Of a stretch of 64,000 bases of DNA, positions 34,442 to 43,296 are shown piece after piece. Origin of the DNA: Pelagibacteraceae bacterium (lineage in GTDB: Bacteria; Pseudomonadota; Alphaproteobacteria; HIMB59; GCA-002718135); contig JABHWG010000082.1 of NCBI GenBank assembly GCA_018657885.1, positions 190-64,189 of the forward strand, read 5' to 3'. A program made the translations under genes and the position numbers. Positions within the stretch are counted from its first letter, which is position 1; every line of letters begins with the position of its first letter. The notes beneath the pieces are model-generated. The model had not been told where the DNA came from. It searched no databases and saw only the letters and a list, made by a program, of their open reading frames with translations.

Positions 34442-34682
34442 ATAATTATTTTAAAAAATAATTATAATAAAAAGGAATTATTTTTCTTGAATTATCATCA
34501 CCAATAAAAATTATACTTTTTTTTGTAAATTTTAAATCTTTTAAAAATTTCCAATTTAATGGTGCTGGAATACAGCCAAAGCAGTATTTGATTTTCACTT
34601 TTTTATTATTTGTAGGATATATTCCCATTGGATGATCTAATTTAGATTTTTTAAACTTGCAGATAATTTATGATTTTCATGA

Positions 34683-35134
34683 CAGCTTGTTGATGCTTCT
34701 ATTCTTATTCAGATGAATGAAGGAGCAAAGGGAAGTCTTTCTATTTCTCAGATTGCTACTGGAGAAGAAAAATTTTTTCTGTTTCAGTTTATGGTGATAA
34801 TGGAGCTTTGCATTGGCGACAGGAGAATCCAAACTTTGCAACATTTAATAAAGTAGGTAAACCAAACCAAATCATTACTCGTGGAGGACCAATTCAGCAA
34901 GATGGATTATTAGCTAAATTAAGAATTCCTCCTGGACATCCTGAAGGTTTTTTAGAAGCTTTTGCTCAAATATATACAGATTTAGCTGATGTTATTCAGG
35001 GTTCTGATAATTCTGAAGAAATTAAAATAATATTACCGAATGAAAATGACGGTCTACAGATAATGAAATTTATAAATGCCTCAGTAAACTCAAGTAAAAA
35101 TAATAGTATTTGGAAAGATTTAAGTTCTATTTAA
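34683..35134 (+). pseudogene. Gfo/Idh/MocA oxidoreductase remnant: C-terminal third only, with a frameshift
   Basis: One frame (34683-34790) reads ..DASILIQMNEGAKGSLSISQIATGEE. After the homopolymer tract gaagaaaaatttttt (about 34764-34778), the frame shifted by -1 reads FSVSVYGDNGALHWRQENPNF...PGHPEGFLEAFAQIYTDLADVI through to the stop at 35134. Together they form a typical C-terminal domain of this family. No N-terminal Rossmann domain lies upstream on this strand. Confidence 0.7.
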
Positions 35135-35162
35135 AAAACGCATAACTATATATGCGTTTTTT
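35133..35162 (+). terminator. rho-independent terminator hairpin
   Basis: aaaaaacgcata / tatgcgtttttt form a 12-bp stem (35133-35144 and 35151-35162) with a 6-nt loop. The 3' arm ends in a T-run. Confidence 0.6.
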
Positions 35163-35224
35163 GCATATTTATCATTCTTTAATTAAACTTTAAAAATTTA
35201 ATATTTTAATTAAATATAATATTA

Positions 35225-35272
35225 CGTTCATCATGTTTTCATGACGGAAGTAGACGTAAGTCGAAGGAACGC
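35225..35272 (+). promoter_or_regulatory. glutamine riboswitch-like aptamer (glnA RNA motif), copy 1
   Basis: CGUUCA-UCAUG-UUUU-CAUGA-CGGAAGUAG-AC-GUAA-GU-CGAAGGAACGC. This matches my recollection of the glnA RNA core (CGUUCA...CGGAAGUAG...CGAAGGAACGC), with P1 formed by CGUUC/GAACG. Confidence 0.75.
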
Positions 35273-35289
35273 ATGCAAAGTTATTAAAT

Positions 35290-35338
35290 CGTTCAATTTG
35301 TGAAAGCAGATCGGAAGTAGGTTTTACCGAAGGAACGC
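35290..35338 (+). promoter_or_regulatory. glutamine riboswitch-like aptamer (glnA RNA motif), copy 2
   Basis: CGUUCA-AUUUG-UGAAAG-CAGAU-CGGAAGUAG-GGU-UUU-ACC-GAAGGAACGC. The core strings are identical to copy 1. Both variable helices have different sequences but still pair, which is compensatory change. Confidence 0.75.
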
Positions 35339-35430
35339 GGAACTTATATATTAATTTCCATAGCTAAGCATGAAAAGTAGCACATAACTTATGGTAAGTT
35401 ATGTCATGTGAAATTTATAATGGAGGATTA

Positions 35431-36717
35431 ATGTTTAGAAGATCTCTTTATTTTTTAAGTATTTTATCATTTTTTTTACTATTCAGTTCTTATGCAAAAG
35501 CTGGCGTTGATGCTGAGGTTGCATATATATTGAATACATTTTCTTTCTTAGTTTGTGGCTTTCTTGTAATGTGGATGGCTGCTGGCTTTCTATTTTTAGA
35601 GTCAGGATTAGTGACAACAAAAAGTGTCTCAACTATTGCGGCTAAAAATATTGGAAAATTTGCAATTGTATCAGTTGTATTTTATTTTATTGGTTATAAC
35701 CTTGGATATGGTGTGCCTGAAGGTGGCTTTATTGGAAGTTTATCAATTTGGTCTGATTCAAGTAATTTAGAAACAGGTTATTCAGATGCTTCTGATTGGT
35801 TTTTTCAAGCTTTGTTTGTTTGTGCTACTGCATCTATAGTCTCTGGTGCAGTCTCAGAAAGAATTAAAATTTGGCCATTTTTTTTATTTTCTGCAATATT
35901 AGGAGGATTTATTTATCCTATACAAATGGGTTGGGAGTGGGGCGGTGGCTGGCTTGATGCTCTTGGTTTTGCTGATTTTGCTGGATCTACTCTTGTACAT
36001 GCTTGTGGTGGATCAGCAGCTCTTGCTGGTGTTATAATATTAGGACCTCGTCTTGGCAGATTTTCTCCTACAGGGGAACCTGTTAACATGGCGCCTTTTG
36101 CACCATCTTCAATTCCACTTGTTGCTCTTGGTACTTTTATTTTATGGATGGGCTGGTTTGGATTCAATGGTGGCTCCCAGTTAGCCCTTGGATCTTTTGA
36201 AGATGCAACTGCAATGTCTAAAATATTTATGAATACTCAATTAGCTGCATGTGGAGGTGTTATATCTGGAGCCGTCATCTCACGTTTAGTTGGAGGTAAA
36301 ACAGATGTTGTCATGATGCTGAATGGAGCTCTTGCAGGATTAGTATCAATTACTGCTGAACCTTTAATGCCAAGTCCGATACTTGCTATATGTATTGGAT
36401 TAGTTGGTGGTATAATTATGTATTATGGAACTGCATTCCTTAATTATTTAAAATTAGATGATGTTGTTGGAGCGATACCTGTACATATGTTTGCAGGAAT
36501 TTTTGGAACGATGATCGTCCCTTTAAGTAATCCTAATGCATTATTTACAATTCAGTTATTAGGCGTGGTGTCAGTATGTGTCTTTGTTTTTATTACATCT
36601 TACATCGTAATTTCTGCTATTAAATCCACAATAGGATTAAGAATAAGCGAGGAGGCTGAAAAACTAGGAACAGACAAAGCTGAAGTTGGTGTTATTGCTT
36701 ATTCAATTCGAGATTAA
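35431..36717 (+). CDS. amtB: ammonium transporter
   Basis: I prefer the ATG at 35431 (MFRRSLYFLSILSFF..., with a signal-like N-terminus), which follows GGAGG at 35422-35426. The protein has Amt/MEP blocks FADFAGSTLVHACGG, WMGWFGFNGGS, NGALAGLVSIT and DDVVGAIPVHMFAGIFG. Confidence 0.93.
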   Translation: MFRRSLYFLSILSFFLLFSSYAKAGVDAEVAYILNTFSFLVCGFLVMWMAAGFLFLESGLVTTKSVSTIAAKNIGKFAIVSVVFYFIGYNLGYGVPEGGFIGSLSIWSDSSNLETGYSDASDWFFQALFVCATASIVSGAVSERIKIWPFFLFSAILGGFIYPIQMGWEWGGGWLDALGFADFAGSTLVHACGGSAALAGVIILGPRLGRFSPTGEPVNMAPFAPSSIPLVALGTFILWMGWFGFNGGSQLALGSFEDATAMSKIFMNTQLAACGGVISGAVISRLVGGKTDVVMMLNGALAGLVSITAEPLMPSPILAICIGLVGGIIMYYGTAFLNYLKLDDVVGAIPVHMFAGIFGTMIVPLSNPNALFTIQLLGVVSVCVFVFITSYIVISAIKSTIGLRISEEAEKLGTDKAEVGVIAYSIRD

Positions 36718-36766: not shown

Positions 36767-36785
36767 TAGAGGAGTTTCTCCTCTA
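36767..36785 (+). terminator. hairpin after amtB (tagaggag-ttt-ctcctcta) followed by a T-rich stretch
   Basis: Read directly: an 8-bp stem and 3-nt loop, 50 nt after the amtB stop. Confidence 0.45.
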
Positions 36786-36801: not shown

Positions 36802-37164
36802 ATGAATGCTGAAGAAATTATAAAATTAATGAAAAAAGCTTTGTATTCTAGTATCAAAAGTCCTGAAATTTTTGGAAAATTTTTTAATAAGTCTATTTTA
36901 CATAATGCCGTTGTTATGGAAATTTTTTCTAATAATATAAATGGTATTTGTTATGAAAAATTATGTTTTAATATTCCAAAATCACTGGGTTCAAGATCAA
37001 GTATTCAAAATTTACTAAAGGAAGGTCTAGATAAAAAATTATTTAATAAAATTGAGAGTCAGGAAGATAAAAGAATAAAAAATTTTTATTTATCAGATCT
37101 ATCTTCTCAAATGGTATTAGATTGGGTTAAAGAGCAAAAAAAAATTTTTAATGGTCAGGATTAA
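36802..37164 (+). CDS. hypothetical protein (120 aa), possibly winged-helix-like
   Basis: A clean ORF in its own space. I see no recognisable motifs, and the weak resemblance to MarR-like wHTH spacing is not supportable without a search. Confidence 0.45.
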   Translation: MNAEEIIKLMKKALYSSIKSPEIFGKFFNKSILHNAVVMEIFSNNINGICYEKLCFNIPKSLGSRSSIQNLLKEGLDKKLFNKIESQEDKRIKNFYLSDLSSQMVLDWVKEQKKIFNGQD

Positions 37165-41491: not shown

Positions 41492-42259
41492 TTAAGCCTC
41501 TACTTTTATTTTACCAGACTCATGTAATTGAATCATTTTTTGAACAAGTTCTTCTCTTGATATTTCATCCTTATTAAACTCTCCGACAACCTCACCTCTA
41601 TCTAATATAATAAAACGATCAGCTGCTCCATAAACATGAATAATATTATGATCTATGAAAATTGCTGATTTATTTTTTTTCTTTAATCCTTTTACAAAAT
41701 TTAAAACCTTTTCCGTCTCTTGAATTGATAAGCCCATTGTTGGTTCATCTAGTACAATTAAATCAGAGTCAAAATACAAAGATCTACCAAATGCTACTCC
41801 TTGTTTTTCTCCTCCAGATAAACCCGTTATGATTGAGTCAACAGTAATAGCTTTGGATGTAAAACCAATATAGTCCCTTAATATTTTCTCTGCTTCTTTT
41901 CTTTGCTTCTTTATGTCTAAAAATCCAAAAGAGTTAGTAATTTCTCTTCCAGCAAAAATATTTCGCCATAATTCTTGTTGATCACATAAAGCTCTTTCTT
42001 GATACACTGCTTCGATACCCATTTTTCTAGACTGAGACACAGATTTAATTACCACCTCTTCTCCATTAAAAAATACTTCACCCGAAGAAGGTTTATGAAC
42101 GCCTGTGATAACTTTAATTAAAGTTGATTTTCCTGCACCATTATCGCCAATAAGAGCTACAACTTCCCCCTTATTTATTTTGATGTTAACATCTTTTAGT
42201 ACTTTAACATTGCCAAAATTTTTATAAATGTTTTGTAATTTTAAAAGTTCTTCACTCAT
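41492..42259 (-). CDS. ABC transporter ATP-binding protein (single NBD), system A
   Basis: Walker A GDNGAGKST, signature LSGGEKQG, Walker B LIVLDEPT. I prefer the start at MSEELLKLQ (42259) because the track start at 42283 abuts the upstream terminator hairpin. Confidence 0.88.
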   Translation of the reverse strand: MSEELLKLQNIYKNFGNVKVLKDVNIKINKGEVVALIGDNGAGKSTLIKVITGVHKPSSGEVFFNGEEVVIKSVSQSRKMGIEAVYQERALCDQQELWRNIFAGREITNSFGFLDIKKQRKEAEKILRDYIGFTSKAITVDSIITGLSGGEKQGVAFGRSLYFDSDLIVLDEPTMGLSIQETEKVLNFVKGLKKKNKSAIFIDHNIIHVYGAADRFIILDRGEVVGEFNKDEISREELVQKMIQLHESGKIKVEA

Positions 42260-42279
42260 TTTTTTAATTTCTAAAAAAA

Positions 42280-42305
42280 ACAAACCTGCCGAAGGGCAGG
42301 TTTGT
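42280..42305 (-). terminator. GC-rich intercistronic hairpin plus U-run right after the SBP gene of system A
   Basis: The minus strand reads acaaacctgcc-cttc-ggcaggtttgt followed by tttttttt. The 11-bp stem stands out in AT-rich DNA. Confidence 0.65.
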
Positions 42306-42315
42306 TATAAATTAA

Positions 42316-43296
42316 TTATCTAATTTGTAGAGCAGCTAATGGAGCTACTGCATCAATATTTGCTTTTGTCACAAATGCTGCACCAGTATCCATTGCTAAA
42401 CCAGCCATACCAAATTTTGTAGTAAGATAAAGCTGAACAATAGGCATATATCCTTGGATAAATGGCTGTTGATCAATTACAATATCAATGTATCCAGAAT
42501 TAATTCCATCAACGATAGGAGCTGACAAATCAAATCCAGCACCACAAACCTCTTCAGATCCGTGACCAGCTGCTTTCATGTAAGTTGGAAGACTTGCTGT
42601 TAACCCACCATGGTCTGTAATAGCCATTTTAATATCAGGGTTAGCACTGTAAGTAGCAACATACATTGGCGTACCTTGAGAAGCATCTGAATTTACGTTA
42701 TCAGGAATTTCCTGATACACAACTTCAACACCCATTTCTTCAACGCCTGCGATAGCACCTTTGGTTCTCTCACCTCTGTTTGGCATACTTGCAAGACCCC
42801 AAACAAAAGCTTTGTCTCCAGCTGATAAACCACAAACTTCAACAGCTTTTTTTCCAAGATTAAAACCGGCAGCAAATAAATCTGCACCTGCATAGCCAAA
42901 GCCTTCAGTTTTAAATTCAGCTTCTAAATCAGGAAGTGGAGTGTTCATAGTAGTAATTACTATTCCCATCTCTCTAGCTTCTTTAATGATTGGTCTCATA
43001 GCAGCATCACCAGGAAAACCATAAATAGCAATTCCATCTGGTTGAAGCGCTACAGCTTCTTTAAATTGTTTAATCATGATTTCAGAATTCCATTGTGACC
43101 AATAATAATCAACATCACAACCTGTATGTTCTGCAGCAGCTACTGCTCCATTATAAACAATAGTTCCAAATGGCCCACCTTCTGGTCCACCTGGGAAAAA
43201 GATAAATTTCTTATCACAACTATAGTCATTTTTAGCAATTGCCGAAGTTGATGCAAAAGCGAAAAATAAAGCTACTAAAGCTAAAATTTTTTTCAT
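42316..43296 (-). CDS. periplasmic sugar-type (PBP type I) substrate-binding protein, system A
   Basis: 326 aa with a signal peptide (FASTSAIA) and a ribose-binding-protein-like two-lobe pattern. A GGAGGA RBS lies upstream. Confidence 0.88.
   Translation of the reverse strand: MKKILALVALFFAFASTSAIAKNDYSCDKKFIFFPGGPEGGPFGTIVYNGAVAAAEHTGCDVDYYWSQWNSEIMIKQFKEAVALQPDGIAIYGFPGDAAMRPIIKEAREMGIVITTMNTPLPDLEAEFKTEGFGYAGADLFAAGFNLGKKAVEVCGLSAGDKAFVWGLASMPNRGERTKGAIAGVEEMGVEVVYQEIPDNVNSDASQGTPMYVATYSANPDIKMAITDHGGLTASLPTYMKAAGHGSEEVCGAGFDLSAPIVDGINSGYIDIVIDQQPFIQGYMPIVQLYLTTKFGMAGLAMDTGAAFVTKANIDAVAPLAALQIR

Follow-up and report, generated by a model that had tools for sequence, protein, structure and literature searches.

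The messenger RNA of an ammonium transporter gene (amt) in a SAR11 genome almost certainly opens with a pair of glutamine riboswitch aptamers that belong to the glnA RNA class (RF01739). The DNA studied here is a 64-kb stretch from a member of the Pelagibacterales (SAR11), referred to below as the window, and all coordinates given without a locus name are window positions. The window is of SAR11 origin, since the closest relatives of its amt product among species-representative genomes are found in single-cell and metagenome-assembled genomes (MAGs) of Pelagibacterales (80 to 85% amino acid identity) and since its G+C content is ~30%. A tandem glnA RNA in front of an ammonium transporter is already known (Weinberg 2010, PMC2864571), so that neither the class nor the arrangement is new. 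What we add is an explicit host assignment, an expression platform common to amt and glnA, and a proposal for its mechanism, in which the two aptamers would share one translational platform and glutamine would turn translation off; we give this proposal about an even chance of being correct. The pairing of the inter-aptamer linker on which it builds may already have been described. The gene, its translation start and the two aptamers are located as follows.

35431 to 36717, + strand: amt, encoding an Amt-family ammonium transporter of 428 amino acids (Pfam PF00909, Ammonium_transp, E = 1e-95)
35422 to 35433, + strand: Shine-Dalgarno (SD) sequence GGAGG (35422-35426) and start codon AUG (35431-35433), read from the sequence
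35223 to 35275, + strand: glutamine riboswitch aptamer 1 (RF01739, 65.5 bits, E = 2.8e-12, model positions 1-53 of 53)
35288 to 35341, + strand: glutamine riboswitch aptamer 2 (RF01739, 54.8 bits, E = 2.7e-9, model positions 1-53 of 53)

A preliminary description of this DNA had picked out two elements resembling glnA RNA, the first running from CGUUC to GAACGC at 35225-35272 (48 nucleotides [nt]) and the second at 35290-35338 (49 nt), with a gap of 17 nt (35273-35289) between them, and had named an RF01739 covariance-model search as the check to be made. Rereading the sequence returned the same boundaries, the same strings identical in both copies (CGUUCA, CGGAAGUAG and GAAGGAACGC), the same complementarity of the variable stems (UCAUG/CAUGA versus AUUUG/CAGAU, the latter with one U-G pair, and GAC/GUC versus GGU/ACC) and the same distance of 93 nt between the end of aptamer 2 (35338) and the amt start codon (ATG at 35431-35433). 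When the window was scanned against 4227 Rfam families (cmscan), only two matches exceeded the gathering score, which is 35 bits for RF01739; both were to that family, full length and far above the threshold. A permissive scan of the window yielded no further RF01739 copy at E ≤ 1. The start codon at 35431 is kept in amt homologues, whereas an in-frame ATG upstream of it, at 35401, is not. The aptamers lie in the 5' leader of a nitrogen-metabolism gene.

The internal anatomy of the two elements is that of the family. Alignment to the family consensus recovered the three-stem junction (P1, P2 and P3), with every conserved junction base (CGGAAGUA and GAAGG) present in both copies. P1 is formed by 35225-35229 with 35267-35271 in aptamer 1 and by 35290-35294 with 35333-35337 in aptamer 2; in both cases, the linchpin C (35272 and 35338, respectively) follows directly 3' of GAACG, and both J2/3 junctions contain CGG. 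The roles of the linchpin C and of the J2/3 GG, a ligand contact, are those described in the published structural work. Among 31 related amt leaders, compensatory changes were observed in four of five P2 pairs and all three P3 pairs of aptamer 1 and in three of five P2 pairs and two of three P3 pairs of aptamer 2; P1 did not vary in either aptamer. Every sequence-level hallmark of RF01739 was thereby found in both copies; L-glutamine binding and ligand-dependent control of the gene are predicted.

The window is not alone in carrying this leader. Tandem RF01739 matches before amt were found in several Pelagibacterales genomes and in one SAR116 genome (loci L002, L010, L011, L019, L028 and L030). 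A metagenome scan for the tandem signature produced 120 loci, which, pooled with the genome loci, gave 77 distinct leaders of a single architectural type. These leaders precede three kinds of gene: amt, the gene for a type I glutamine synthetase (glnA), and a circularly permuted ATP-grasp gene. In all 77, the order of elements is the same: aptamer 1; a linker of 15 to 19 nt, C-AUGC-(A)AA-AGUUAU-..; aptamer 2; a spacer; UUUC(C)-AUA[GA]CU-xx-GCAUG-A; a hairpin; and finally SD and AUG. The glnA genes with this tandem leader include those at L201 1908-3934 and L203 2280-3931, as well as those in L085, L091, L109-L136 and L160. At the ATP-grasp loci (L104 4916-5170 and four others), the leader is followed by an upstream open reading frame (ORF) of 20 codons (MVKKLDNKKIFYSNLKRFTP), the stop codon of which overlaps the ATP-grasp start (TGATG); there, the CUAUGG located at the start codon of this 20-codon ORF offers a pairing partner to CCAUAG.

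Two further arrangements concern amt itself. In L002 (409-3947) and L010 (751-4287), two consecutive amt paralogues each have a tandem riboswitch of their own, with a MarR-like ORF between them; the window shows the same synteny, with genes for AlgH-like and DsbD proteins downstream, and a single amt copy. In L023 (4590-4842, minus strand), a full tandem leader is followed only by a remnant of the amt N terminus of 17 codons, running antisense into the altered 3' end of a MarR-like ORF, an arrangement that looks like a rearrangement scar.

The preliminary description had also stated that glnA RNAs occur upstream of ammonium transporters, sometimes in tandem, and that cultured SAR11 bacteria lack PII and NtrBC. 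The former agrees with the marine metagenome survey of Weinberg 2010 (PMC2864571), and the latter agrees with Smith 2013 (PMC3870248), who reported cultured SAR11 without GlnB, GlnK, GlnD and NtrBC. Its remark that no PII gene accompanies amtB extends to the entire 64-kb window, in which tblastn with an Escherichia coli GlnB query found none at E ≤ 10; this negative is meaningful because the same query detected PII genes in dozens of other loci. The suggestion built on these points, namely, that glutamine sensing by RNA provides the nitrogen-status input, was supported, but only insofar as it is not taken to mean a simple replacement of PII. At many glnA-type loci from related marine alphaproteobacteria, a PII gene (glnB) lies immediately upstream of the leader. 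In a Pelagibacteraceae MAG, the leader precedes glnA with tRNA genes upstream and no adjoining PII gene, and in a single-cell genome related to that MAG the order is glnB, leader, glnA. Because the same leader sits directly after glnB in these relatives, the riboswitch is not simply a PII substitute.

Downstream of and between the aptamers, we delimited the following elements of a putative expression platform.

35272 to 35284, + strand: proposed 5' strand of a long-range (LR) helix, CAUGC (35272-35276) and AGUUAU (35279-35284) in the inter-aptamer linker, by complementarity
35360 to 35372, + strand: proposed 3' strand of the LR helix, AUAGCU (35360-35365) and GCAUG (35368-35372), by complementarity
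35339 to 35342, + strand: GGAA tail of aptamer 2, SD-like, with possible pairing to UUCC at 35356-35359 (helix Ha)
35348 to 35361, + strand: candidate anti-SD segment AUAUUAAUUUCCAU, complementary to AUGGAGGAUUAAUGU (35420-35434, SD and AUG)
35382 to 35404, + strand: conserved hairpin of variable sequence, 10 bp, loop UGG, by covariation

A single expression platform, not a separate one for each, appears to serve both aptamers, because the linker is only 15 to 19 nt long, contains neither a terminator nor an SD sequence, and is complementary to a site past aptamer 2. Sherlock 2022, with 157 glutamine doublets counted, places tandem glutamine riboswitches among multiple-platform systems, which would make the leader a pair of independent ("pseudo-cooperative") riboswitches with platforms of their own; alternatively, the U-rich sequence that follows the hairpin (35382-35404) in some homologues would fit control by transcription termination. 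We regard both of these options as very unlikely: so short a linker leaves no room for a first platform, a terminator scan found no intrinsic terminator inside the leader, and the hairpin of the window is AU-rich and followed by CAUGUGAAA, which is not a U-tract. The hairpin as such is well supported, with 6 of its 10 pairs changing on both sides and 94.8% of alignment cells paired among the 31 amt leaders.

Within a single shared platform, the LR helix would join the linker to the segment past aptamer 2. Its 3' strand overlaps the anti-SD segment by two bases (AU, 35360-35361). In the window, the duplex of 35272-35284 with 35360-35372 has a predicted energy of -10.3 kcal/mol, versus -3.0 ± 1.7 kcal/mol for shuffled sequences, and in each of the 51 unique combinations of linker, tail and SD it ranges from -7.4 to -11.4 kcal/mol, versus about -3 ± 1.6 kcal/mol for shuffles. 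RNAalifold returned the CAUGC:GCAUG pairing unprompted, and AUA[GA]CU..GCAUG is kept in all 77 leaders that have the CAUGC linker. Among the 31 amt leaders, 96% of the alignment cells of the 11 LR pairs are paired, and two pairs vary on one side only with pairing kept (A-U to G-U and U-G to U-A). Helix Ha is smaller: three pairs (GGA:UCC) are kept in 27 to 28 of the 31 leaders, and the fourth varies between GGAA/UUCC and GGAU/AUCC (the latter in four loci, L028 and L030 among them).

The near-invariance of both LR strands, with no two-sided changes, is also what one would expect if the linker and the UUUCCAUAGCUAAGCAUGA block were kept for some other reason, be it docking between the aptamers, a protein or small RNA site, an RNase site or a short ORF starting at AUG 35370; GCAUGA does always open a short ORF (2 to 8 codons, as read from the sequences), and glnA-type leaders show only a weak anti-SD signal. 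Regulation would in that case follow a route outside our folding models. We nevertheless consider such an origin improbable, given that complementarity is found in 51 of 51 combinations, including those with altered registers (AGUUA:UAACU, GGUUA:UAACU and GAA-containing linkers), and given that the mini-ORF lacks an SD sequence and is conserved neither in length nor in sequence. In the window, this mini-ORF, opened by the invariant GCAUGA, spans 35370-35387 (MKSST*) and is probably incidental to the helix strand.

The anti-SD element is plausible in amt leaders and no more than a candidate in the leaders at large. In the window, its pairing with the SD region amounts to 14 bp with one bulge (-11.1 kcal/mol), which 3.3% of shuffles equal; a result that at most 5% of shuffles match was obtained for 13 of 27 amt-type leaders and 1 of 17 glnA-type leaders. 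By eye, the anti-SD and SD sequences had seemed to change together between amt-type (UUUCCAU:AUGGAGG) and glnA-type (UUUCAUA:UGUGAGG) leaders. We dropped this candidate covariation after a test of cognate and noncognate pairing energies, in which amt-type anti-SD segments paired better with any SD sequence and glnA-type pairing stayed at the level of shuffles.

From these elements, we propose the following mechanism, including a switching direction, which the preliminary description had not given. Without glutamine, the linker (C35272-AUGC..AGUUAU) would pair with AUAGCU..GCAUG at 35360-35372, the resulting LR helix enclosing aptamer 2, and the GGAA tail of aptamer 2 would pair with UUCC at 35356-35359; together, these helices would keep the anti-SD segment (35348-35361) off the ribosome site, and amt would be translated as the default state. 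With glutamine, each aptamer would draw its linchpin C (35272 or 35338) into its binding core, upon which both holding helices would open and the freed UUUCCAU would pair with AUGGAGG and the AUG (35420-35434), blocking initiation. Glutamine would in this way restrain ammonium uptake by negative feedback, with full repression requiring both aptamers to be loaded.

Three lines of evidence bear on this mechanism. First, the positions of the linchpins are suggestive: C35272 of aptamer 1 is the first base of the LR helix, and C35338 of aptamer 2 comes just before the GGAA tail. Published work on the solved cyanobacterial aptamer describes how ligand binding brings J2/3 to the P1 base, the G23-C60 linchpin pair forms, and a short helix attached to P1 melts. 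Second, the two states appear close to balance. With the aptamers forced, the LR helix plus GGAA:UUCC came to -39.5 kcal/mol and the anti-SD:SD alternative to -39.8 to -40.3 kcal/mol (a gap of at most 0.8 kcal/mol), and the ensemble free-energy difference between the two states was -0.2 kcal/mol. Third, the modeled unpaired fraction of positions -13 to +3 over the 77 leaders was 0.56 with the helix formed, compared with 0.34 with the 5' strand released, and the helix state was the more accessible one in 71 of the 77, a count that is indicative only, as the sequences are related. Because the modeled accessibility of the SD region is higher with the helix formed, the helix state would be the one open to translation.

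We infer the switching direction from this arrangement. An OFF logic would follow because the anti-SD segment is held by a helix with the linchpin C as its first base, an arrangement that adds one relay element to the layout seen in cyanophage and gifB leaders and thereby inverts its logic; it would also be physiologically sensible because the same platform precedes both glnA and amt. Klahn 2018 called negative regulation "reasonable" for glnA. Taken together, the comparative evidence points to repression by glutamine. The steeper dose response that the preliminary description had expected from the tandem aptamers is plausible.

Several points weigh against this proposal. With respect to the pairings, 7 of the 11 LR pairs are invariant among the 31 amt leaders and none changes on both sides, so that the helix is suggested by conservation and complementarity, not by covariation; pairing extends to just 78% of cells in the weak GGAA:UUCC helix; and glnA-type leaders lack significant anti-SD:SD pairing (the 1 of 17 mentioned above), with cognate pairs no better than noncognate ones. 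With respect to the models, folding predictions ignore tertiary structure, and since the forcing of any helix removes pairing partners of the SD sequence, part of the accessibility gap may be generic. How the ligand would act on the helix, moreover, is something that we infer by analogy with the cyanobacterial aptamer. Finally, published observations favor the opposite sign. The sole glutamine riboswitch tested in vivo, that of gifB, is an ON switch that activates translation (Klahn 2018); Weinberg 2010 (PMC2864571) inferred that genes with glnA RNAs go down on nitrogen depletion; and in strain HTCC1062, Smith 2013 (PMC3870248) saw the Amt protein SAR11_1310 only in nitrogen-replete cells, with its mRNA unchanged, and speculated on a glutamine-activated RNA.

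These last observations would be accommodated by an ON switch built from the same aptamers, in which glutamine would stabilize the aptamers together with the LR helix and expose the SD sequence, so that this Amt paralogue would be produced under plentiful nitrogen, perhaps to serve as a release valve for ammonia; the folding of aptamer 2 would assist by shortening the loop that the LR helix closes. We hold this version to be unlikely. An identical platform stands before glutamine synthetase, for which activation by its own product makes little sense, and the helix begins with the linchpin C, the very place where the ligand is reported to melt attached helices. The HTCC1062 observation, for its part, is not demonstrably that of this riboswitch, as the intergenic region before SAR11_1310 (125 nt) is shorter than the leader of ~210 nt. 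We had considered tying the published HTCC1062 expression data to the riboswitch and rejected this: the intergenic region before SAR11_0818 (146 nt) is likewise too short, and the amt paralogues downstream of hupA, the arrangement of SAR11_0818, showed no RF01739 match at any of the 18 such loci. Hence, these data cannot be linked to the riboswitch, and the AmtB of HTCC1062 that is induced by nitrogen limitation is probably controlled differently. Meyer 2009 does not mention glnA.

Returning to the proposed OFF-acting shared platform, we compared it with four known systems. With the glnA RNA motif itself (RF01739; Weinberg 2010, Ames & Breaker 2011), the leader shares the aptamers, their junctions and three stems, the location in the 5' untranslated region of nitrogen genes and the occurrence of tandem copies; the aptamers are no different, and the distinction lies in the host, which here is SAR11 and not cyanobacteria. 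The gifB riboswitch of Synechocystis (Klahn 2018) belongs to the same aptamer class, and its proposed mode of action is likewise translational: the nucleotides immediately after the linchpin C would base pair with the ribosome-binding site itself, giving an ON switch. Here, the corresponding nucleotides pair with the segment that carries the anti-SD, which would give an OFF switch; furthermore, the gifB product inhibits glutamine synthetase, whereas the gene regulated here assimilates nitrogen, and there are two aptamers here. The tandem glycine riboswitch resembles our leader in joining two homologous aptamers that sense one amino acid through a short conserved linker, ahead of what would here likewise be a single platform. 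In our leader, the proposed link is instead a helix from the linker to a site past aptamer 2, and the sequences give no sign of inter-aptamer docking or cooperative binding. Pseudo-cooperative tandems (Sherlock 2022) are also doublets of one class with one ligand, but they need a platform for each aptamer, and here aptamer 1 has none of its own.

Other glnA RNA leaders encountered in the scans have different tandem layouts. In six type C leaders, which precede a GSII-like glutamine synthetase gene or a Gcw_chp porin gene, a local hairpin follows each aptamer. In seven cyanophage-like leaders, the tail of aptamer 2 (CACCU) is complementary to the SD sequence AGGGUG. Both of these types, which lack the CAUGC linker, also lack the GCAUG partner and have a local helix after each aptamer instead. 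A scan of viral contigs gave only six loci, each with a cyanophage-type or type C layout, and none offered a further variant of the LR helix.

SAR11 bacteria are among the most abundant bacteria of the ocean, and most of their members lack the PII/NtrBC nitrogen sensing of other proteobacteria; the regulation of ammonium uptake and glutamine synthetase in these bacteria has posed a question since 2013. The present findings place a direct RNA sensor of glutamine before amt in SAR11, with related leaders before glnA in a Pelagibacteraceae genome, and offer an account of how nitrogen might be gauged in a cell without the usual PII sensor. They also assign a host to riboswitches of marine metagenomes: Klahn 2018 found genomic matches exclusively in cyanobacteria and noted riboswitches before glnA in marine metagenomes, for which the taxon and the direction of control were called unknown. 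For a MAG of Pelagibacter, an RF01739 element is mentioned in a study from 2025. If the OFF relay is true, the class would hold both ON and OFF members built on the same linchpin mechanism, and tandem glutamine doublets would need to be reclassed as two-aptamer devices with one platform.

Two additional elements near amt may add a transcriptional layer to its control.

35151 to 35167, no strand: palindrome TATGCGTTTTTTGCATA (T-ATGC-N7-GCAT-A, core ATGC-N7-GCAT), candidate operator
36802 to 37164, + strand: protein of 120 amino acids, MarR-like winged helix (AlphaFold and Foldseek)

Of 42 distinct upstream regions of leaders before amt or other genes, 26 have the palindrome core (as ATGC-N7-GCA[AT]) starting 73 to 75 nt, in most cases 73 nt, ahead of aptamer 1, whereas none of 28 glnA-type upstream regions has it; the mean in shuffled controls was 0.015 regions. 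The palindrome recurs in 11 named loci (among them L011, L019 and L104) and in others. The match at 35151-35167 is the sole intergenic one in the window. The remaining ATGC-N7-GCAT matches (35510, 57433 and 58731) lie inside ORFs and were set aside as probably due to chance. This distribution suggests that the palindrome is an operator for a dimeric regulator and would constitute an extra layer of transcriptional control. As for the 120-amino-acid protein, it has no Pfam match; it has 397 homologues, and the source names among the 120 listed are all "hypothetical protein". Its ORF neighbors riboswitch-controlled amt in at least 19 loci. The AlphaFold model, although of modest confidence (predicted local distance difference test [pLDDT] score of 64), has a helix-turn-helix and wing topology, and MarR-type regulators appear to make up nearly all of the best 50 Foldseek matches in the PDB (E = 2e-3 to 1e-2). 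The protein may be a nitrogen-linked regulator; a role in the present system, or binding to the palindrome, is speculative. Combining these elements, it is conceivable, and we put it forward tentatively and with more doubt than confidence, that the OFF-acting two-aptamer platform (with both aptamers loaded) is a separate variety of glutamine riboswitch employed by SAR11 and its relatives, and that this platform, the ATGC-N7-GCAT operator and the MarR-like gene would form a core part of the PII-independent nitrogen control that Smith et al. (2013) were unable to pin down.

Apart from these, two terminator-like hairpins flank the amt transcription region.

35132 to 35163, + strand: terminator-like hairpin closing the upstream gene (terminator scan; 13 pairs, then a T-run)
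36767 to 36785, + strand: terminator-like hairpin after amt, UAGAGGAG-UUU-CUCCUCUA, then a U-rich tail, read from the sequence

The 3' arm of the first hairpin overlaps the palindrome at 35151-35167; the second was not flagged by the terminator scan. The ORF upstream of the leader (34808-35134) has a TTG start and no Pfam match and is preceded by ~360 nt without a long plus-strand ORF (region 34442-35134); a disrupted gene may have left this ORF as its tail. Elsewhere in the window, at 42237-42330, subthreshold Rfam matches to the enterobacterial small RNAs STnc370 and SurA (E = 0.14 to 0.46) were observed on both strands, and this signal most likely represents a hairpin or a terminator-like inverted repeat.

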